A program made the position numbers and the translations under genes. A DNA stretch of 64,000 nt from Lentisphaerota bacterium (GTDB taxonomy: Bacteria; Verrucomicrobiota; Kiritimatiellia; UBA8416; VGWI01): the NCBI GenBank assembly GCA_016873655.1, contig VGWI01000002.1, positions 25,357 to 89,356 of the forward strand, read 5' to 3'. Shown here piece by piece: positions 12,400-30,330 of this stretch (its first letter is position 1; each line of letters starts with the position of its first letter). A model generated the notes under the pieces. That model saw only the letters and a program-made list of their open reading frames with translations. It had not been told where the DNA came from and made no database searches.

Positions 12400-13758
12400 C
12401 TATTCGCGCCCGCGCTTCAGGTTGTGCTTCCTGATGAGCCGCTGGAGGTAGGCGCGCTCGATGCCTGCTTCCTTCGCCGCCTGCGATACGTTGCCGTGAT
12501 GGCGGCGCAGCAGATCCTGCACGTAGTCGGCCTCGAACTTGCGGACAAGGTCGTTCTTCACATCCTTGAACGGACGGTCGGCGCTGAAGTCCAGCCCGCG
12601 CGAGTCCTCTTCGGTCTTCAGAATCCCCATGTAAAGAAAGGCGCTCAGGTCTATCGGCCGTTTCTGGCTGTAACACGCTATTTCGACCAGGTTCCGCAGC
12701 TCGCGGACATTGCCGGGCCATGTGTGGTTCCGGAGCGTCTCCATCGCCTTTTCGAAGTTGGCAACCTGTCCCATCGCATCCGGCCCCAGGAAGTCCTTCA
12801 GGAACGACTCGGCCAGCACCGAAATGTCGTCCTTCCGCCTGCGAAGCGCCGGAAGCTCGATGCGCGCAATGGAAAGACGGAAGAATAGATCCTCGCGAAA
12901 GCGCCCGGCCTGCACCTCGTTTACCAGCTTCTTGTTCGTGGCCGAAACGATGCGCACGTCCACGTGGCGGACGGTGTTGCTGCCAACCCGCCGGATCTCG
13001 CGCTTCTCAAGCACCCGCAGCAGCTTCGGCTGAAGCTCGGCGCTGAGGTCGGCAATCTCGTCAAGAAAGACCGTGCCGCCGTCGGCATGCTCGAACGCGC
13101 CGACACGGTCGGTGTTTGCGCCGGTGAAAGAGCCTTTCTGGTGACCGAACAACTCGCTCTCGATCAGCTCGCGGGCAAGCGAGGCGCAGTCAATCACGAT
13201 GAAGGGTTTGTCTTTCCGGCGGCTGTTCCGGTGAATCTCCTCCGCGACCACTTCCTTGCCGGTCCCGGTCTCGCCCTCGATCAGCACGGTCGCGTCGGTC
13301 GGCGCGTAGGTCTCTATCTCGTGAAAAACCCGCCGCATCGCCACACTGCGCCCGAGCAAGGCGCCAAGCGACGTCCGTTCGCTCAGGACGAATTCACGCG
13401 TCTCCTGGAGCGGACAGAACACGATCCGCGCCTTGCCAAGCTGGATCTCGGTGCCTTGCCCAAGGTACGCCTCTGACACCCTGACGCCGTTGACGTACGT
13501 GCCGTTCGTGCTGCCGACATCCCGAACCACGTACCCGTCATCGGGGGTCATCTCGATCTCACAGTGCCCTTTGGATACGGTGTCGTCAGGCAACTGCAGA
13601 TCGTTGTCCGGAGAACTGCCGATCGTGAATGCATCCTTGTCCAGGATGAACTCCCGGCCCTGCAGACCGCCGGATACGACAAGCAGCTTCGCCTTCTTAA
13701 TCAGCATCTGCCCGCACGGGCCGGGCTGCGTAATGATGAGTGTCGGACTGTCCACCAT
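12400..13758 (-). CDS. sigma-54-dependent transcriptional activator with N-terminal FHA domain (FHA, AAA+ sigma54 interaction, HTH)
   Basis: An FHA core ([22 protein letters not shown]...STNGTYVNG), Walker A GETGTGKE, a GAFTGA-like GSFTGA, ESELFGH and a C-terminal Fis-type HTH. It lies 60 bp downstream of the lipid-like operon on the same strand. The alternative start is the Met at 13707. Confidence 0.8.
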
Positions 13759-13817: not shown

Positions 13818-14891
13818 TCAAGGGCCGCGGGATGGGATGGGAGGACGTGGAGAGCCTGTGTGGGACCGCAATTCGACCAGCGCCTCTTCGCGGGTGAAAG
13901 AGCGTTCGCCGGCGTCGGCCATCATGTCCGCAAACCGCTTGCCGGAGAAGTCGAGGTTACGGCTGACCGAGTAGACGGCGTAGTGCGAGGGGTCCATGAA
14001 TGGCCTGTCGGCATCGAAAGCGTTTGACAGGGCGGAAACCATGCGGCCGAGGCCGACGCCTGCCCACATGGGGAGGCAGACTGTCTTGAAACGTTTCCCG
14101 GCCAGGAATACGTCCGCAACCATATGCGTGAACTCGTCAATGCTCGTTCGCTCCAAGTCAACCACGTTGATTGCCCTGCCCGCGGCGGCCCTGACCGTTG
14201 CCGCGAGGAAGCAGGCCTTCGCAACGTTGCGCACATGTGCAAGCGGCCACCTGTTTGCGCCGCGCCACGGCCCAAAGTGGACGATGAAAGGTGAAGAGCG
14301 CAGAAAGGAAGCGACTCTGGAAGTCAGCGTCAGGTCCCCGACGCCCCAGACCTGCGCCGGCCGGAGGATGGAATAGCGATCGGGTTCGAGTCCGGAGCGA
14401 ACGGCTTTCTCGGCCTCGATCTTGAACGCCGGGTACGGATTGGGCGGAAACGGCGAGAGCGGCAGGGCATCCTCGTCCTGGCCGTCGAAATCCCTCAGTC
14501 CGTAGACGTCGGTGGTGGAAACAAACACCAGGCGGCCGACATCGAATTCGTGCGCCAACTCAACCAGGACTCGAACCGGGTCAAGGTTGGTCCTCCGGAA
14601 TCGGGCGGTTCGTCCGGTATCCGTCGCACGGCCGGCGCAATGCACGATCGCATCCAGCTTTCCGCCCGCGGCTGCTTCGCGGACCGTGGCGCGGAGAGAT
14701 GCCGGCACGGTGATGTCGGTTCGCAGGAACGTGGTCTTCTCCAGGCCGGCCAGCACGTCGGCGGGTCTTTCGCCCGCGCCGGGGCGGCGCCTGTGGAATG
14801 TGCCGTACGTATTCCAGCCGCGCAGCGCAAAGAGCGCCGCCGCATAGCTGCCGATGAATCCGCCGGCGCCTGTGACAAGAACGGTGTTCAC
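13818..14891 (-). CDS. NAD-dependent epimerase/dehydratase-family (extended SDR) oxidoreductase
   Basis: A Rossmann motif, [15 protein letters not shown]. It overlaps the upstream gene by 4 nt (ATGA). It is the last gene of the 7-gene operon. Confidence 0.8.
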   Translation of the reverse strand: MNTVLVTGAGGFIGSYAAALFALRGWNTYGTFHRRRPGAGERPADVLAGLEKTTFLRTDITVPASLRATVREAAAGGKLDAIVHCAGRATDTGRTARFRRTNLDPVRVLVELAHEFDVGRLVFVSTTDVYGLRDFDGQDEDALPLSPFPPNPYPAFKIEAEKAVRSGLEPDRYSILRPAQVWGVGDLTLTSRVASFLRSSPFIVHFGPWRGANRWPLAHVRNVAKACFLAATVRAAAGRAINVVDLERTSIDEFTHMVADVFLAGKRFKTVCLPMWAGVGLGRMVSALSNAFDADRPFMDPSHYAVYSVSRNLDFSGKRFADMMADAGERSFTREEALVELRSHTGSPRPPIPSRGP

Positions 14892-16183
14892 GCAATGATC
14901 CCATTCCTGCGCCCGACATCCGCAAAGACGGAAAGGGCGGCGTCTATCTCAATCTCGGTCAGTGTGCTCATTGCGCTCACTCGCAGCCTGCATTCCTTGC
15001 GTCTCACAGCCGGGTATGTGACCAGGTTCGTGAAGACTCCGTTCGCGCGCAGCTCGTTGTGGAAGGCCGCAAGTTTCTGTTCATCGCCGACGATGACAGG
15101 GATTATCGCCGACTCCGTGTCACCGGTGTCGAAACCCAGCGCCTTGAGCCCGTCGCGCAGGCGGGCGATATTCCTCCACAACCTGTCCCTGCCTGCCGCA
15201 TCTGCGCGAATGAGGCGCAATGCCTCGACGAGTCCTGCCGCCGTCGGTGCGGGCATGCTGGTGGAGAAGAAATAGGTGCGCGCGTAGTAACGCAGGTAGC
15301 GGACGACGGACGCGCTTGCCGCGCAGTAGCCGCCTATGGCGCCGGGCGTCTTGCTCAGCGTACCGCAGAGCAGATCAATCCCGCGCGTGCAGCCGAAGTG
15401 CTCGGGCGTGCCCAGACCGGTCGGGCCGACGACTCCAAGTCCGTGCGCATCGTCCACCATCACGCGTGCGCGGTGGCGCCGGGCCAGGTCCGTGATCTCG
15501 TCAAGCGGCGCCAGGTCGCCGTCCATGGAGAAGACACCGTCGGTCACTATGAGCCTGCCGCGGACGGAGTCGGGTATGCGCTGGAGCACTCGCTCAAGGT
15601 GGCGCATGTTGCGGTGCAGGTAGACCTTTATTTCGGCGCCGGAGAGGCGGCAGCCGTCGAATATCGATGCGTGGTTCGAGGCGTCGTTGACAACAACATC
15701 CCCTGGTCCGCACAGGGCGGAGATGATGCCGACGTTCGCGGAGTAGCCGCACGGGAAGAGGATTGCGTCTTCCGTTCCGTAGAGCCCGGAGAGCTCCTCT
15801 TCAACAAGGCGGTGCAGCGGAGTCGTTCCGGCGTACAGGGAAACCGCGCCCATGCCGTAGCCGTACTCGGCGCATGCCTTGATGCTTGCGGCGACAACGG
15901 CGGGATGTGTTGTCAGCGCCAGATAGGAATTGGACCCGAGCATGGTCACTTTGTGGCTGTGGCCGTCGTGCTCGCGGACCGTGCACGTGTGGGCTGCCGG
16001 CCCCTCCATTCGCAGGCCGAGCCCTTCAGTGTACGAAGCCGGGTTGGCGCCCAGGTAGGAATCAAGGGCGTCGGCCTTCGCGAAGATGTCCGCATCGCCG
16101 TCTTGCGGAATGAAGTCCTCGAAGCGCCGTTCGGTCCCGTCCTCGCCACTGTCGCCGGGCAGCTTTCCCGGTTCCTTGTTCAT
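14888..16183 (-). CDS. alpha-oxoamine synthase family PLP-dependent acyltransferase (Spt/Kbl/BioF-like)
   Basis: A class I/II aminotransferase fold with a PLP-Lys context, [17 protein letters not shown], plus SMDGDLAPL and DDAHGLG. It has an N-terminal extension of about 60 aa. The ATG at 16183 overlaps the upstream stop. Confidence 0.8.
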
Positions 16184-17397
16184 GTGGTTGCCTTTCTCCT
16201 TCGGTGGCAGCGAAGCGGAGTGTGCGAATCGCAATACACCGTGCACAGGTTGCAGTTGGTACAGCCCGACCGTTCAGCCGAGCCCGACAGAAGACGCGCC
16301 GGCAAACCAGGGTCATGGACCAGCGGTCTGCACAGCGAAACGGCATCGAGTCCGTGTTCCGAACGCGCGCGGAGCATTCCGTCCGGCGAGCGAATGCCGC
16401 CCACGGCCCAGACGGGCACAGGCACCGCTTTCCGGATGGCGGCCGCGGCCGGTACGTTGTAGTTCTCGCAGAACGGTATCAACCCGCGAAGATGGAACCG
16501 TGCGAACAGCGCCTTCCACGGCGTCCTTGCCCAGCGCGGGATACGCGCGAAGAGGGGATTGACGCACAGTGCAACATCCACCGGGCAGGCGCCGCGGATG
16601 ATGTTGAGCGCCGTCTCCATGGTTCCGTAACTCACTTCGAAGGCGTCAGCTCCGGCAGCGGCCGCGCGCCGTGCAGCGGTCACCGCGTCAGCCGTTGTCA
16701 GCCCCGGCCTGTTGTCGTCGCCGGCGCTCAATTTGACGAGGATGCCGAAATCAGGGCCTGTTTCCTCGCGGATGGCGCGCACTATTTCCTCGAGAAACAC
16801 CGGGCGGTCGCCCCAGCGGTCGCGGCGATTGTTTGTCCATGGCGACAGGAACTGGTGCACAAGGTAGCCGTGCGCGCCGTGCACCTGCACCCCGCTGAAT
16901 CCCGCCTTTTGCGCGCGCGCCGCGGCCGCGGCGAACTCGGCGACAACGCCGGCGACTTCGGAGTCGGACAGCCGGCGCACCTTCTGCCGGAAGTATGTGC
17001 ACCGGCGGGTGGACGCGCCGACCGCCTCCATTCCGGTGGCTTCATGGCGCGTCTGCCGGCCGGCGTGGGCCAGCTGCATGAACAGCGGGACGAGCGAGCC
17101 CGCCGAACGCGCAACTCGAACCGTTTCAGTCCAGGCCGGCAGCTTGTCATCAGAATCGATCCCGCACTGGCCCGGCTGCATCGCGCGGCCCTGCCGGGAA
17201 ACGAATGCAAAGCCTGTTATCAACGCGCCTGTTCCGCCCTTCACGAGTTGCGCGTACAGTTCACCCAGCGCCGGAGTAGGGAAGCCTTCGGAATCAGCCA
17301 TGCCCTCATAGGTGGCGGAGCGAACGATGCGGTTGGCGGCCGTGACCGAACCGAGGCGAAGCGGTGTTGCAAGAGACTGCGTAAGTCCGGAAGTCAT
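16180..17397 (-). CDS. Old Yellow Enzyme-family NADH:flavin (FMN) oxidoreductase / ene-reductase
   Basis: The motifs [10 protein letters not shown] and [28 protein letters not shown] are OYE signatures. The start is the Met at 17397 (ATGA overlap). Confidence 0.8.
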
Positions 17398-18398
17398 TTG
17401 CCCTCTCTTCCGGCAAGCAGCCGCTTTGCCTCCGCAACAGCTGCAAGCGCGTGCTGTCCGGCGTCGCGGGCTTCGCGCGGGCACGGCGGTGGACACGTCA
17501 TGGGCAAAGCGCGGGCGTCTGCAGCGGCAAAGAACACGCCGGCCTCGTTCGAGGGAAACGCACGGCCGATCCTCGTGAGGCCGGCCCGTGCACATTTCGC
17601 GGCGAGTGTGCCGCCGTCCCCGGCTGGAAACGAGAAGAGCAATTCGTATTCCCCCGCGCCGCCGAACAGGGCCGATTCGGGCGGCGCGCCGATTGCAGCG
17701 CAGGCCTGTTTCACTCCCTCGGAATAGGGTATCGCCGGCAGCTCCACTTCAAGGCGCATGCCTGGACTTGCGCGCCTCATCATCCACAGCGCATCCGCCA
17801 GGCCACCGCTGGTATCCGTGCCGGCAACGGCGGCTTCACGCGCCAGCGCAGCGGCGTTAACGCGCAGCTCCAGCGCCGGGGTGGGCGCCCCTGTCAGCGC
17901 GGCGGCGTTCATGTGCCCCAGGGCGCCGGAGATCCACAGATCCTGCTCCACGGCGGGAAGCACGCGTTTCAGCGGGGTGCGCGCCGCGAGCGGGCCCATC
18001 GCGAAGCCGGCATAGCGCCATTCGCCGGCTGTGCCGAGGTCGCCCCCGCACAGCGCACAGCCGGCGGAATCGAGAATGCGGGACAGCCCGCCGCAAAGGG
18101 CGGAGACGAAGTCGGCGGATACGTCGGCCGGCAGCGAAATGGAATGGAGCATGAAGCGCGGCTCCACGCCCGCTGCGAGCAGGTCGCTCAACGTCGCGAC
18201 CGCAAGATTCGCGCCCAGCAGGTCCGGGTCCGCGGAAGTGAACAGGTCCTCCTTCTCGCTGAATTCGTCCACCGTCAGGCCCCACACCGCGCCGCCCACG
18301 CGGATGAATTCGGCGTCGCTTTCGAACGGCGCGTTGAGCTGTTCCGGACTGCGCCTGAAGCGCGAAGCGATCGCCGCTATCGTTTCGTATTCGTTCAT
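17394..18398 (-). CDS. AIR synthase-related (PurM superfamily, ThiL/HypE-like) ATP-dependent enzyme
   Basis: An N-terminal ESDAEF...[13 protein letters not shown] region and a C-terminal domain typical of the PurM/ThiL fold. It is 334 aa. Confidence 0.65.
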
Positions 18399-19333
18399 GG
18401 CGCAGTTCCTTCCGGCGAAGCGGGGCCGCGCGTTCCGCAGATCAGGTCAAGGCGGCGCGCGTGCAGCTCAATACTGACCGGCAGACCGCCGTGCGAATCG
18501 CCATCGAACTCGACGGAGACCGGCCGTTCCGTGCGCATGGAGAACCTTCGGCAACTGCCGGTGAAGACTCCTTCCGCGTTCACGGCCGAACCCGCGTAGA
18601 AGGCCGGGAGAAGCGCGAGCATGCCGGTTCGGCTGCGTCCCGAGACGGTCACGACCGTCAGCAGGCCGTCGTCCGGAGACCGGTCCACACTCAGCCGCAG
18701 GCCGGAGGCGATCCACGGATTCTTGAGAACAGCCACGTGGTTCACGCCGCGGAGTTCCATGCGCCGGCCGTCCAGAAGTATCTCCGCGTCGAACCTGCGC
18801 ACGGTCGCGATGGCGCAGAGAAGCGCCATCGCCGTGCCCGCGGTGTCGCCAGTGAACCGCCGCAGGCGGTTCGCGATATCCGCCGTTTTTGCTCCCAGCC
18901 CGATGTTGCAGCCGCAGCCGAACCATGAGGTCGCCGGACCGCCGGCATTCTGGAACCCGATTGATGCCACATCAACCTTTGTGGCAAGGCCATCCAGCAG
19001 CACCTGCAGCGCCGCGGCCGGATCCGTCGGGATGGAATGAAAGCGGCAGAAGTCGGGGCTTGTCCCGGCGTACAGAACGCCCATGCGCCTCTCCGCGGCG
19101 GGCGCATCAGCCAGCCCGGCGAGCACCGCGTTGATGGTTCCGTCTCCGCCAACCGCGACAACGACATCAAACCCGGGGGCTTCGGTTGCCAGTTGCCGTG
19201 CATGGCCGAGGTCGCGCGTCACAACCGGTTCAAAGTCGGCTCCGGCGCGTTTCATGCCCTCTGTCCAGAACTTCCATCGCTTCCGGCCGCGGCCGGCGCG
19301 GGATCCGGGATTCAGGATCAACAGGTATTTCAC
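18395..19333 (-). CDS. DAGK_cat-family lipid kinase (YegS/BmrU/sphingosine-kinase-like)
   Basis: YLLILNPGSRAG plus VVAVGGDGTINAVL, the GGDGT signature of diacylglycerol kinase catalytic domains. The GTG start at 19333 overlaps the upstream stop (GTGA). Confidence 0.75.
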   Translation of the reverse strand: MKYLLILNPGSRAGRGRKRWKFWTEGMKRAGADFEPVVTRDLGHARQLATEAPGFDVVVAVGGDGTINAVLAGLADAPAAERRMGVLYAGTSPDFCRFHSIPTDPAAALQVLLDGLATKVDVASIGFQNAGGPATSWFGCGCNIGLGAKTADIANRLRRFTGDTAGTAMALLCAIATVRRFDAEILLDGRRMELRGVNHVAVLKNPWIASGLRLSVDRSPDDGLLTVVTVSGRSRTGMLALLPAFYAGSAVNAEGVFTGSCRRFSMRTERPVSVEFDGDSHGGLPVSIELHARRLDLICGTRGPASPEGTAP

Positions 19334-20619
19334 CGGTAGATGCCCAGCTTGTCGTAAACAGGCGTTCTGCCGCCGCGGTCCCAGCCGGCGATCAGTTCCT
19401 GTGTCTGCGGCCAGCGCAGCGGCATGTCGGACAGGGAGTTGCGCCGCGCTATCGCCGCGATTGCGGCGCCTTGCGTGCAGCAGAGCCAGTCGCAGCAAGG
19501 TTCGCGGAAGGCATCGCGCATCCTGGCGAGGATTGTCTCGAACGGCTCCTCGGCCACGTTTCCGAACGAGACGTTGAGAAACTCGCACGGCTGCACTTCT
19601 CCGTGCGCGTTCATGTAGAAGCGGTCCACGCCGCCGGCGGTACAACCGAGAACATCCGGCGACTCCTCGAAGACCTGCGCCGCAAGCGACGGATGGCCCT
19701 GGAAGGCGCGTGAATTGTAGCGGAGGTGCTGGGCACGGAGATGACGCAGCACGGCGGGGTCGGTCTGCATTTCCTCGCGGCGGCCGAGCCAGCGGCCTGC
19801 GGGCTTGGGATGGATGAGCTGCACGAAATCGCAGCCCTGGTCCCCTGCGAAATCCATCAGGTCCGTCAATCTGCCGTCGCGGACTTCCTGTTCGGAAAGG
19901 ACGCTGTTCACCGCGGTGACGAAGCCGTGCTTCTTGAACATCCGCAGCGCCCGGACCGCGGAACCGAAGGAGCCTGCGACGCCGGTCATTCGATCATGCT
20001 TCTCCCGGCTGGTGGAATGGACAGAGATCATGACCCCGTAAAGTCCCGCGTCTTCCAGTTCGCGCAGCATGTTTTCTTCGAGCCCGTCGCCGGTGGTGTT
20101 GACCCATATCTCGGAACGTTCATCCAGCGCCCGCATCAGGGCGATCAACCGGTCAAAGCGCAGAAGCGGTTCGCCGCCCTCGATGTCGAACATGGCAACG
20201 CCGGCGTCGCGCATGGCCACGGCCGAAGCGGCCATCAGTTCCGCGTCCATGTCCGCGCCTCGGTCCGTCCTCTGGTAGCAATGCTCGCAGCGGTAGCGGC
20301 AGGCCTTTGTCATCGAGAACACCACCGTGGTCGGGCCGGGCGGCCGCCTGACGAGTTTCGCGTCGAGCGCGTGGAAGAAGGCGGGGGACGGGTAGGCTGG
20401 CAGGTAGAGGTGCAGCTTGATGCCGGACCTGGTGCGGACGGCCTTGTTGTGCCTGAAGACGAGCAGCAGTCGGAGCGCCCGCGAAAGGAACAGGATGTAG
20501 TCCTTCGGCGACCAGCGCAGCTCGCCCATGCGGCGGGCATAGCGGAGCGCGACGCCTGCCGCTATTCGGACATACGTCCACGCCTTGGCCGGTCCGGTGA
20601 TGAAACGGCTGTCTTTCAC
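19330..20619 (-). CDS. radical SAM enzyme with C-terminal SPASM/twitch-type auxiliary cluster domain
   Basis: CRYRCEHC is a CxxxCxxC motif. The SPASM-like region is GCTAGGVDRFYMNAHGEVQPCEFLNVSFGN, and an extra CCDWLCC follows. The GTG start at 20619 overlaps the UbiA stop. The alternative start is the Met at 20529. Confidence 0.75.
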   Translation of the reverse strand: MKDSRFITGPAKAWTYVRIAAGVALRYARRMGELRWSPKDYILFLSRALRLLLVFRHNKAVRTRSGIKLHLYLPAYPSPAFFHALDAKLVRRPPGPTTVVFSMTKACRYRCEHCYQRTDRGADMDAELMAASAVAMRDAGVAMFDIEGGEPLLRFDRLIALMRALDERSEIWVNTTGDGLEENMLRELEDAGLYGVMISVHSTSREKHDRMTGVAGSFGSAVRALRMFKKHGFVTAVNSVLSEQEVRDGRLTDLMDFAGDQGCDFVQLIHPKPAGRWLGRREEMQTDPAVLRHLRAQHLRYNSRAFQGHPSLAAQVFEESPDVLGCTAGGVDRFYMNAHGEVQPCEFLNVSFGNVAEEPFETILARMRDAFREPCCDWLCCTQGAAIAAIARRNSLSDMPLRWPQTQELIAGWDRGGRTPVYDKLGIYR

Positions 20620-21608
20620 GAGCGGGCGTCCTTGTGAAGATCGAAGAGGAAGCCGATGAACACATAGCTGGCAGTGAGCAGGTACAGCGCAAGCGTGCCG
20701 TTGAAGATGGCGATCATCGTCACCTGGCCGGCCACGCAGGCGCGGATATTCGTAACCAGGCTGAAATACGTTCTGTCGCCCAGCGGATGACGGAAGTAGA
20801 GAACGGCCGTCCAGAGCTGAAGAAACAGTGTCATCACAGCGCAGAAGACGAAGTCGCGCATGAACAGCACGTCGCCCAGCGGCAGCCAACCGAGAGAATG
20901 CAGCAGCACGAAAAGGAGCGTTGGGAGAAATGCGCCGGCGACGCCGGCATAGCGGGCGGCGTTCAGGCCGTACTTGACGACAAACGTCTTCTTCCCCGCC
21001 GCCCTGTCACCCCTGTAGTCCTTGAAGTAGGTATAGTATGTCATCAGCGCGTTGATCAGCGCCACCAGCGCGAAAGCCGATATGCGGTTGCTGGTGAAGA
21101 GCGGCGTTGGAGGCGGTCCTGAGGCAAGAAACCCGTATGCCATGCACGTCGCGATGGAGAGTCCGAAGACCGCGTTTCCGACAAGCGACCATGCCTTCGC
21201 GTATTCGTACAGGATGTTCAGAAGCACCCCGATCACGGCGGGAACAACGGACCACGGTTCGAGGAACCATGACACGGCTCCGACCAGGAAGAGGAGCCCG
21301 ACCGAGACAAGCATGGCGGCCCCGGGGTTGAGTTCGCCGGTAACCATCGGCCTGTTGGGTGCGTTGATGCGGTCTTCCTTCAGTCCGAAGAAGTCGTTGA
21401 TGACCTGGTTGACGCCGTAGCTGAGGAACAGCATGCCGAGTATCAGGGCCTTGCGCCCCGCCCCCCCGGCGCCGGGGCAGCAGAAGTCATAAAAGGATAC
21501 GCCTATCCAGCCGGCTATGCCGGTGACAAACGAGAAGTACAGCCGCATCGAGCGGATGTAAGCGAAGATGAAGGCGAGGGTGGAGCCGGAGCCGGAGCCA
21601 ACATTCAT
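20616..21608 (-). CDS. UbiA-family aromatic/alkyl prenyltransferase (ChlG/DGGGPS-like subfamily)
   Basis: It has 8-9 TM helices. The Asp-rich motif VINDFFGLKEDRINAPNRPMVTG resembles the NDxxDxxxDxINxPxRP motif of chlorophyll synthase and DGGGPS. It is the first gene of the operon. The long N-terminal part of ORF 20616..22064 is discarded as non-coding. Confidence 0.8.
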   Translation of the reverse strand: MNVGSGSGSTLAFIFAYIRSMRLYFSFVTGIAGWIGVSFYDFCCPGAGGAGRKALILGMLFLSYGVNQVINDFFGLKEDRINAPNRPMVTGELNPGAAMLVSVGLLFLVGAVSWFLEPWSVVPAVIGVLLNILYEYAKAWSLVGNAVFGLSIATCMAYGFLASGPPPTPLFTSNRISAFALVALINALMTYYTYFKDYRGDRAAGKKTFVVKYGLNAARYAGVAGAFLPTLLFVLLHSLGWLPLGDVLFMRDFVFCAVMTLFLQLWTAVLYFRHPLGDRTYFSLVTNIRACVAGQVTMIAIFNGTLALYLLTASYVFIGFLFDLHKDARS

Positions 21609-29796: not shown

Positions 29797-30330
29797 ATGA
29801 CAGGCCGACAGTTCTACGATTGGCAGACCGGCGGCGGCGGGGACGACGTCATGCGCATGGTAAACGCGCTTGAGCGATCCGAGCTGCCTTGGTGTGCCAT
29901 TGGAGGAGTGGCCGTCAATCACTGGGCCAGAGAGCCCATGGTTACGCGGGACGTTGATTTTGTTGTCGCCGTTGACCATGTTGAGAGGGCTGTGGACGCC
30001 ATGGCTGCAGCCGGGTTCAAGGCCGAAAGGCACGAATGGTCCATCAACTTCACCGGCAGGTCACAAGTCAGCATGCAGCTCAGCACCGAGGACTTCTACC
30101 GCGAGTTCCCGTCGCGCTCGGTTCCGGCGGATGTCCACGGCATTCTGTTGAGAGTGGCGTCTCTCGAAGACACGCTTGCGGGCAAGATCAAGGCATGGAG
30201 CGACGCCGCGCGGCGTCCGAGCAAGCACATCAAGGATCTGGGCGATATCGCCCGTTTGGTTGAGGCGCACCCGCGGCTCCAGTCCGCTCTCCCAGGCAGT
30301 GTCCGAAAGGCGCTTGAAGCAAACACCTGA
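29797..30330 (+). CDS. minimal nucleotidyltransferase-fold protein (MNT/AbiEii-like; uncharacterised)
   Basis: An NTase signature, GGVAVNHWAREPMVTRDVDFVV (GG...T.D.D), plus a C-terminal helical region. It is on the opposite strand to the flanking rha genes. Confidence 0.45.
   Translation: MTGRQFYDWQTGGGGDDVMRMVNALERSELPWCAIGGVAVNHWAREPMVTRDVDFVVAVDHVERAVDAMAAAGFKAERHEWSINFTGRSQVSMQLSTEDFYREFPSRSVPADVHGILLRVASLEDTLAGKIKAWSDAARRPSKHIKDLGDIARLVEAHPRLQSALPGSVRKALEANT

Follow-up and report, generated by a model that had tools for sequence, protein, structure and literature searches.

An alpha-oxoamine synthase and its short-chain dehydrogenase/reductase partner in a conserved seven-gene cassette of uncultured bacteria

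The gene pair and its operon

We analyzed a stretch of 64,000 nt (the window) from a Lentisphaerota bacterium (assembly GCA_016873655.1, contig VGWI01000002.1, positions 25,357-89,356, forward strand), in which two adjacent minus-strand genes encode an alpha-oxoamine synthase (AOS) and an 'epimerase-like' short-chain dehydrogenase/reductase (SDR). The overlap between the AOS stop and the SDR start at 14888-14891, reported in the original prediction for this DNA, is confirmed: the GTG start of the SDR (14891-14889) and the TGA stop of the AOS (14890-14888) share 4 nt, and the plus-strand letters tcac at 14888-14891 read GTGA on the coding strand. The AOS gene begins with an ATG at 16183, which is preceded by GGAGAAAGG and itself overlaps the stop codon of the upstream old yellow enzyme (OYE) gene as ATGA. 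Gene calls in two independent public assemblies of this sequence return identical products of 431 amino acids (aa) for the AOS and 357 aa for the SDR.

The two genes are the last of a minus-strand operon of seven, which runs from 20616-21608 down to 13818-14891 over 7.8 kb in the order UbiA, radical S-adenosylmethionine (SAM) enzyme, DAGK-type kinase, ThiL-like enzyme, OYE, AOS, SDR. All six junctions in the window are 4-nt overlaps, either ATGA or GTGA. The lipid kinase that had been noted upstream of the pair does belong to the same operon and carries the DAGK_cat and YegS_C domains. The original prediction did not see that the pair ends a seven-gene cassette with UbiA, radical SAM, ThiL-like and OYE enzymes, and the likely product therefore differs. 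The genes and the AOS positions discussed below are the following:

20616..21608 (-): UbiA-superfamily membrane prenyltransferase, 330 aa (Pfam UbiA, 86.6 bits)
19330..20619 (-): radical SAM enzyme with SPASM/twitch domain, 429 aa (Pfam Radical_SAM and SPASM)
18395..19333 (-): soluble lipid kinase of the DAGK/YegS family, 312 aa (DAGK_cat 81.5 bits, YegS_C 69.5 bits)
17394..18398 (-): ThiL-like ATP-dependent enzyme of the PurM superfamily, 334 aa (Pfam AIRS, 48.8 bits)
16180..17397 (-): OYE-type flavin ene-reductase, 405 aa (Pfam Oxidored_FMN, 154.9 bits)
14888..16183 (-): AOS, 431 aa (Pfam PF00155, 173 bits)
16085..16183 (-): extra N-terminal segment of the AOS, residues 1-33 (family alignment, AlphaFold model and profile offsets)
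15842..15844 (-): codon of AOS Val114, equivalent to Val79 of the Thermus AOS (ThAOS) and Ser102 of the Sphingomonas paucimobilis serine palmitoyltransferase (SPT, or Spt)
15350..15352 (-): codon of AOS Lys278, the lysine of the GTLSK motif that binds pyridoxal 5'-phosphate (PLP)
13818..14891 (-): extended SDR ('epimerase-like'), 357 aa, putative 3-keto reductase for the AOS product

We consider it very likely that the pair is an aminoketone-to-amino-alcohol module within a dedicated seven-gene biosynthetic cassette, and that it represents neither Kbl with threonine dehydrogenase (Tdh) nor BioF.

Distribution and conservation of the cassette

A protein search with the AOS returned a large family of homologs of about 420 aa that are 63-80% identical to it, with the N-terminal motif covered by the alignments. 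A scan of species-representative genomes then gave at least 80 loci, which we searched by tblastn with the seven window proteins. Among the matches listed, all seven genes are present in unchanged order at about 33 loci, under the labels Kiritimatiellia, Lentisphaeria, Victivallales, Phycisphaerales, Planctomycetota, Armatimonadota, Sumerlaeia, Auribacterota and others. The same seven genes lie in different surroundings on two long contigs, while short contigs labeled Elusimicrobiales and Eisenbacteria hold whatever part of the cassette fits. The OYE is the sole cassette gene absent in some lineages: four loci (L006, L020, L027 and L033) miss it alone, and a fifth (L043) has no OYE at its cassette position. 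Catalytic motifs are conserved in all seven proteins. The 4-nt overlap is the most frequent junction at every cassette position across loci, and at the AOS/SDR junction 24 of 45 related loci show an overlap of 4 nt or 1 nt, as counted by a script that took the candidate start nearest to the upstream stop. Six loci hold the AOS-SDR pair alone and, because it stands by itself there, the pair is a functional unit in its own right. The earlier suggestion of a coupled pair thus stands, even though its two proposed models, Spt with ceramide reductase (CerR) and Kbl with Tdh, do not describe the AOS, which is neither Spt nor Kbl (see below).

When we clustered the flanking open reading frames (ORFs) of 39 loci, only the seven cassette genes recurred, and the cassette is therefore self-contained, with no other conserved neighbor. 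In particular, no head-group transferase, transporter, regulator, bacterial ceramide synthase (bCerS), acyltransferase, acyl carrier protein (ACP), acyl-CoA ligase, geranylgeranylglyceryl phosphate synthase (GGGPS) or glycerol-1-phosphate (G1P) dehydrogenase recurs around the cassette in these 39 loci. Likewise, no ACP, acyl-CoA ligase, acyltransferase, GNAT or prenyl-diphosphate synthase was found among the main ORFs scanned in the window. The claim that no bCerS-like acyltransferase is present is thus borne out, both among the scanned window ORFs and among the genes recurring in the 39 loci, and for this reason it was also correct that this is not the canonical bacterial ceramide pathway.

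One of the cassette carriers is a complete 5.2-Mb Armatimonadota chromosome (OY781964.1, locus L026). Its AOS and those of two further loci from outside the Planctomycetes-Verrucomicrobia-Chlamydiae (PVC) group, L016 (Sumerlaeia) and L028 (Elusimicrobiales), nest within PVC sequences at 62-67% identity. This nesting suggests horizontal transfer of the entire cassette, with mis-binning possible for the short contigs. Full-text literature searches turned up no description of the cassette.

Position of the AOS among known subfamilies

H171 (in the motif NHAS), D244 and H247 (DDAH), K278 (GTLSK) and RLR at 399-401 are invariant in the AOS family alignment; in alpha-oxoamine synthases these positions supply the His stacked on PLP, the Asp/His pair, the PLP lysine and the C-terminal Arg for the substrate carboxylate. 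The GTLSK motif aligns with its counterparts in Kbl, BioF and SPT-like sequences. The protein is an alpha-oxoamine synthase of PLP fold type I with all the catalytic residues of the family. Judged by its profile scores, it lies outside every characterized subfamily, namely Kbl, BioF, Spt, ALAS and CqsA. Its highest NCBIfam score comes from Kbl, with 361 and 314 bits on two models whose cut-offs are 460 and 493; both are missed, by about 100-180 bits, while the Escherichia coli Kbl control passes them with 728 and 747 bits. The BioF model TIGR00858 gives 360 bits (cut-off 426; E. coli BioF control 497). On three Spt models the AOS scores 337, 328 and 277 bits against cut-offs of 640, 500 and 670, and so falls about 170-390 bits short, whereas a tier of SPT-like sequences from Aquificota, Desulfurella and Cloacimonadota reaches 589-615 bits on the Spt model. 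Lower scores come from ALAS (256 bits, cut-off 339) and CqsA (208 bits, cut-off 428). A CqsA-type autoinducer synthase with its reductase was rejected on the last of these, the weakest AOS match.

To place the AOS by phylogeny, we built a neighbor-joining tree of 85 sequences with 100 bootstraps, in which Spt is represented by SPT-like genome sequences labeled by NCBIfam rather than by experimentally proven enzymes. The SDR-paired AOS homologs form one clade (100/100), the SPT-like tier forms its own clade apart from them (100/100), and 83/100 bootstraps place E. coli Kbl and BioF outside the group composed of the AOS family, Leptospiraceae and SPT-like sequences. The AOS family is a clade of its own, separate from Kbl, BioF and the SPT-like sequences. 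The Leptospiraceae clade, which is also N-terminally extended, is a possible sister of the AOS family, with a support of only 50/100. At one locus of this clade (L069, 8986-13411) the genes after the AOS encode an FGGY-family kinase and an enzyme of the Pyridoxal_deC fold, which is the fold of sphingosine-1-phosphate lyase.

These results bear on the alternative that the operon merely happens to contain housekeeping genes for threonine catabolism (Kbl/Tdh) or for the synthesis of biotin (BioF). Some AOS homologs do carry the JGI names 'glycine C-acetyltransferase' or '8-amino-7-oxononanoate synthase'. The AOS nevertheless remains under the Kbl and BioF cut-offs that the controls pass, and its partner is not Tdh-like. 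The biotin genes bioA, bioB and bioD are neither among the window ORFs scanned nor recurrent in related loci. Chance placement is moreover excluded, since about 33 loci of many phyla share the fixed order of seven genes joined by 4-nt overlaps. Tight clustering of the AOS with BioF or Kbl and of the SDR with Tdh, the outcome that would have pointed to such genes, was looked for and does not occur. We consider this alternative refuted, and the two database names need correcting, as neither definition fits these homologs.

The N-terminal extension of the AOS is real but shorter than the 60 aa first proposed. The PF00155 domain begins at residue 78, the Kbl model aligns to residues 76-430 at model positions 41-397, residue 77 aligns to residue 43 of the Sphingobacterium multivorum SPT, and residue 79 to residues 66-67 of the S. 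paucimobilis SPT. As canonical AOS enzymes also have about 40 residues, a small N-terminal domain, ahead of the Pfam domain start, the genuine extra part is estimated from alignment and model at about 33-37 aa, approximately residues 1-33. The AlphaFold model shows disorder at residues 1-16, a short helix at 21-24, the canonical N-terminal helix at 35-46 and a hairpin at 66-81. Within the family, residues 1-18 are variable and residues 19-36 hold the conserved motif RxFEDFxPxxGxxDIxxK.

The active site offers an indication of the amino acid used. In the Thermus enzyme, the range of amino acids accepted is controlled by Val79, at a distance of 3.5 Å from the substrate C-alpha; all KBLs share this Val, whereas SPT (Ser102) and 8-amino-7-oxononanoate synthase (AONS) have Ser and ALAS has Thr at the corresponding position (PMC11906848). 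The equivalent position 114 is Val in 50 of 50 AOS family members and in E. coli Kbl, and Ser in BioF and in 24 of 24 SPT-like sequences. Several neighboring motifs are also Kbl-like (NHAS, TDGVFSM, GTLSK and GGY). Directly after the selectivity residue, the AOS family has Ser or Pro where Kbl, SPT and ALAS have an Arg. Since residue 114 is the KBL-type Val and not the SPT-type Ser, glycine or another small amino acid is predicted to be a more likely substrate than serine. Alanine or serine are possible, because wild-type ThAOS, which has Val, accepts Gly, Ala and Ser (PMC11906848). As for the sphingoid-type amino-alcohol intermediate that had been proposed, a serine-derived 1,3-diol sphingoid base is therefore less likely than an amino alcohol derived from glycine or alanine. 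The loop MGAVSL (residues 111-116, nt 15836-15853), which contains Val114, is the sole internal stretch of the AlphaFold model with a predicted local distance difference test (pLDDT) score below 50.

Two further explanations concern the AOS itself. According to the first, it is a divergent Spt at the start of a canonical sphingolipid pathway, with the SDR as CerR or 3-ketosphinganine reductase and the ceramide synthase elsewhere in the genome. Bacterial SPTs are indeed its best matches in the Protein Data Bank (PDB), both by sequence (SPT 269 bits, Kbl 253, ThAOS 250) and by fold, where the AlphaFold model (pLDDT 83) reaches template modeling (TM) scores of 0.84-0.86 with SPT. The fold comparison does not discriminate among substrates, as all subfamilies are similar (TM 0.83-0.86 to SPT, Kbl, ThAOS and ALAS). 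Spt-like genes with no nearby bCerS or CerR are common in metagenome-assembled genomes (MAGs) of anaerobes: the Black Sea study found Spt-like genes in 38 phyla, in many cases with neither bCerS nor CerR close by (PMC11334938). AOS-SDR adjacency also occurs in canonical-looking sphingolipid loci: at two verrucomicrobial loci, L081 (2079-5386) and L066 (4213-7666), three genes in a row encode an SPT-like AOS, an SDR of the epimerase type and a PAP2_3/PAP2_C (sphingomyelin-synthase-like) protein, and this looks like a compact sphingophospholipid locus with no adjacent bCerS. The widely missed Spt cut-offs, the Val in place of the SPT Ser and the two separate, fully supported clades argue against a divergent Spt, as does the strict linkage to UbiA, radical SAM, ThiL-like and OYE genes, which has no counterpart in ceramide synthesis. 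Overall we regard it as quite improbable.

The second explanation reverses the Kbl/Tdh logic: the AOS would be a non-decarboxylating glycine C-acyltransferase, the SDR would trap the 2-amino-3-oxo acid as a long-chain homolog of threonine, and the cassette would then modify the acid. The invariant Val114, the Kbl-like motifs and the top NCBIfam score of the AOS speak for this scheme, and the lipid keto-reductase OleD, the best curated match of the SDR (see below), reduces alpha-substituted beta-keto acids. The AOS, however, misses both Kbl cut-offs, lacks the Arg that follows the Val, and is separated from E. coli Kbl in the tree. Furthermore, the OleD score of 65 bits is generic, and decarboxylation is not readable from sequence. 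This second explanation is also unlikely in our judgment.

Partner enzymes and a proposed pathway

The SDR has Pfam matches above threshold to Epimerase (PF01370, 92.7 bits), 3Beta_HSD (43.8 bits) and NAD_binding_4, a domain of fatty-acyl reductases (34.3 bits). It contains the motifs TGAGGFIG, STTDVYG and YPAFK, which are conserved as TGAxGFIG, STTDVYG and YPxxK in 32 sequences, and it is an extended SDR with an intact catalytic set. Its best NCBIfam match is OleD (65 bits), ahead of sugar-nucleotide enzymes, and its best PDB match reaches a mere 43 bits. Threonine dehydrogenase is absent from both its PDB and its NCBIfam match lists, and tdh, the partner of Kbl in E. coli, is unrelated to the cassette SDR. 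Compared with the SDR beside the SPT-like gene at L081, taken as a proxy for CerR, it shows 28% identity over 281 aa (48.9 bits), which indicates remote homology only.

The UbiA protein exceeds the Pfam cut-off of PF01040, and its best NCBIfam models are of archaeal UbiA/DGGGPS types. It scores 72.6 bits on PRK12884 and stays below the cut-offs of the models for archaeal digeranylgeranylglyceryl phosphate (DGGGP) synthase (DGGGPS), with 60 (cut-off 296) and 50.7 bits (cut-off 353). Its best PDB match is the archaeal DGGGP synthase 6m31 (47 bits), followed by a weak match to chlorophyll synthase (E 0.003). The motifs NDxxGxxEDRxN (about residues 70-90) and KDYxGDxxxGK, its first and second Asp-rich motifs, are conserved. 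DGGGP synthase makes an ether bond at a hydroxyl that has a charged group on one side and a lipid chain on the other. The kinase, with DgkB as best PDB match (60 bits) and a conserved GGDGT motif, is a lipid kinase of the DgkB/YegS type. The PurM-superfamily protein, which conserves DTSGGL and GGDxG, is clearly ThiL-like without being ThiL: it scores 106.9 bits on the thiL model TIGR01379 (cut-off 184) and 34.8 bits on SelD, and ThiL is its best PDB match (48 bits).

The radical SAM enzyme conserves CxYxCxHC and its C-terminal cysteines, and its NCBIfam matches (GeoRSP, NirJ2 and AhbD-like) are all far below cut-off. Its family profile finds SkfB in the PDB (50 bits), then MoaA, PqqE, BlsE and anSME. 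Single-sequence and profile searches of the PDB returned only generic SPASM/twitch relatives, including DesII, and no lipid-specific enzyme such as tetraether synthase. The OYE is closest to the N-terminal domains (the FMN/4Fe-4S part) of FadH/mycofactocin OYE, NamA, BaiCD and BilR in NCBIfam. It is a short form, composed of the FMN barrel and a conserved C-terminal four-Cys motif, with the cysteine pattern S.CxnCNxC..CD......C read from the conservation string; as it has no NAD(P)H/FAD domain, an external electron donor is needed. A tetrapyrrole pathway composed of ALAS, an AhbD/NirJ-like radical SAM enzyme, a ChlG-like UbiA and a BilR-like OYE was also considered, and is unlikely because ALAS scores lie below those of Kbl and Spt, position 114 is Val and not the Thr of ALAS, and no porphyrin genes accompany the cassette.

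Taken together, these assignments lead us to propose, tentatively, that anaerobes use the cassette to make an amino-alcohol (phospho)lipid that has two tails, one of them an isoprenoid. The AOS would condense a small amino acid with an acyl-CoA or acyl-ACP into an alpha-amino ketone, Val114 favoring glycine. The SDR would reduce the keto group, and the resulting vicinal amino alcohol would be a sphingoid-like base, probably of the 1-deoxy or 1-deoxymethyl type. The Fe-S OYE may saturate a conjugated C=C bond, a step that would be optional because some cassettes have no OYE gene. The DAGK-type kinase and the ThiL-like enzyme might add one or two phosphates, either to the amino-alcohol lipid or to a prenol, and the DGGGPS-like UbiA would attach an isoprenoid second tail, which takes the place held in ceramides by the N-acyl chain from bCerS. 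The radical SAM enzyme with its SPASM domain could perform an oxygen-independent tailoring step. This lipid reading agrees with the lean of the SDR toward OleD, 3beta-HSD and NAD_binding_4, with the membership of the kinase in a lipid-kinase family and with DGGGPS as nearest relative of UbiA.

The L081 and L066 loci and the surroundings of some pair-only loci lend support by analogy. In two planctomycete loci with the pair alone (L044, 6973-8634; L049, 6818-8662) a gene of the Phosphodiest/alkaline-phosphatase superfamily lies directly upstream, and in a third pair-only locus (L038, 9734-14187) a methyltransferase gene and two genes for the D-component of 2-hydroxyglutaryl-CoA dehydratase (HGD-D) lie downstream.

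Several observations weigh against a lipid product. All cassette carriers among the matches listed are MAGs, none of them cultured, and both substrate and product are ones that we infer. Sequence and fold give no split between long- and short-chain acyl substrates, since SPT, Kbl and ThAOS score alike, and the lean of the SDR toward lipid-type relatives consists of weak scores (65 bits for OleD, against a cut-off of 580). Val114 and the Kbl-like motifs disfavor serine and hence the classical sphingoid 1,3-diol, which would offer the kinase a primary hydroxyl. The first Asp-rich motif of UbiA is atypical (NDxxGxxED for NDxxDxxxD) in 33 of 33 cassette sequences, and we know of no UbiA-family enzyme that prenylates an amino alcohol. 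Finally, the roles given to the ThiL-like and radical SAM enzymes in the pathway are guesses.

In a different proposal, the cassette makes a prenylated small molecule such as a cofactor, an electron carrier or a signal. The aminoketone would then go into a heterocycle or head group, which the two kinases would convert to its diphosphate and UbiA would couple to a prenyl chain. Thiamine and methanofuran pathways join their building blocks by way of diphosphate intermediates, UbiA enzymes generally require a diphosphate substrate, and a lipid-kinase-family enzyme followed by a ThiL-like one fits the sequence alcohol, monophosphate, diphosphate. Radical SAM and Fe-S ene-reductases are common in anaerobic cofactor pathways, and the spread of the cassette over phyla resembles that of an accessory trait. 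On the other hand, the nearest relative of UbiA is the ether-lipid DGGGPS and not an aromatic prenyltransferase, and DAGK_cat enzymes of known function generally act on lipids. No cyclase or condensation enzyme that could build a heterocycle is present in the cassette or recurs across the 39 loci, and the pair-only loci adjoin alkaline-phosphatase-superfamily and HGD-D genes, not cofactor genes. We consider a prenylated small molecule unlikely and retain the two-tailed lipid as the preferred reading.

The lipid reading can be extended further, and the extended form is doubtful in our view. It would describe a new class of membrane lipids, with a glycine- or alanine-derived sphingoid-like backbone made by a new AOS clade and an isoprenoid second chain added via UbiA. 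Such a hybrid would combine the logic of bacterial sphingolipids with that of archaeal ether lipids in an O2-free route that has passed among uncultured anaerobes of at least eight phyla.

Comparison with known systems and genomic context

The cassette shares features with several known systems. As in Spt and CerR of Caulobacter and in the Spt-like loci of anaerobes (PMC11334938), an AOS gene lies beside an SDR gene of the 'NAD-dependent epimerase/dehydratase' type, an amino acid and an acyl-thioester would give an aminoketone and then an amino alcohol, and a lipid kinase is present (CpgB in Caulobacter). Unlike these systems, the cassette contains no bCerS, its SDR is only about 28% identical to the Spt-adjacent one, and its AOS-SDR operon adds UbiA, radical SAM, ThiL-like and OYE genes. 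With Kbl and threonine dehydrogenase it shares the Val at the ThAOS Val79 position, the Kbl-like motifs and a dehydrogenase partner. It differs from them in about 35 extra N-terminal AOS residues, in its biosynthetic-cassette context and in an SDR that has no detectable specific relation to SDR-type Tdh.

Fungi offer a parallel in the pairing of an AOS with a C-3 ketoreductase, as in Fum8/Fum13 of fumonisin and in SphA with its reductase in sphingofungin biosynthesis. The fumonisin AOS joins alanine to a long acyl chain, and a dedicated SDR reduces the 3-keto group, yielding a 1-deoxy sphingoid-like amino alcohol. There too, an AOS and a dedicated SDR lie inside a cluster, in this case one for a secondary metabolite, but the fungal systems are eukaryotic, fed by a polyketide synthase and distant in sequence (SphA, PDB 9pep, 96 bits), and their clusters have no prenyltransferase or kinases. 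Archaeal DGGGPS, the nearest solved relative of UbiA, adds an isoprenoid second tail to a single-tailed lipid phosphate; the similarity, however, is weak and below all cut-offs, and neither GGGPS nor G1P dehydrogenase recurs near the cassette. OleD of the OleABCD system resembles the SDR in that it reduces an alpha-substituted beta-keto lipid right after a Claisen condensation, but the cassette contains no homologs of OleA, OleB or OleC.

The cassette is a compact set of genes that joins an aminoketone-forming enzyme to an archaeal-type prenyltransferase, and it occurs widely among uncultured members of the Kiritimatiellia, Lentisphaeria, Planctomycetota, Armatimonadota and other lineages. Sphingolipid-like lipids are abundant and of diverse structure in anoxic waters, where the Black Sea study reports hundreds of orphan sphingolipids, and for most of these lipids neither a producer nor a pathway has been assigned (PMC11334938). 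Should the cassette product be a lipid, it would represent a new way to build a two-tailed membrane lipid, relevant to the debate on the 'lipid divide', and the cassette would be a genetic marker by which orphan nitrogen-containing isoprenoid lipids of sediments could be traced. It would also supply a new AOS subfamily for biocatalysis. With seven genes in 7.8 kb and no other requirement, the proposal is directly testable by heterologous expression.

Downstream of the cassette, on the same strand and starting 59 nt past the SDR stop, lies one further gene:

12400..13758 (-): sigma-54 activator with an N-terminal FHA domain (Pfam), a neighbor outside the conserved cassette

The scan for promoters and terminators gave counts no higher than chance, and no convincing terminator was found between the SDR and this gene, which may be co-transcribed with the cassette in this window. 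As a dedicated regulator of the cassette it was rejected, since it is not conserved beside the cassette at other loci. The remaining window ORFs that were scanned are housekeeping or unrelated genes (pst/pho genes, rhamnose catabolism, ATP synthase, TyrRS, UvrA, hisD/hisC and tsaD). Several antisense ORFs opposite the cassette genes, including 15059-16462 (+, 467 aa) and 16204-17727 (+, 507 aa), are artifacts of the 64% G+C content; they recur at other loci solely because the sense genes do. Amid the rhamnose-catabolism genes, a 177-aa ORF (29797-30330, +) matches the AbiEii nucleotidyltransferase toxin of type IV toxin-antitoxin systems.

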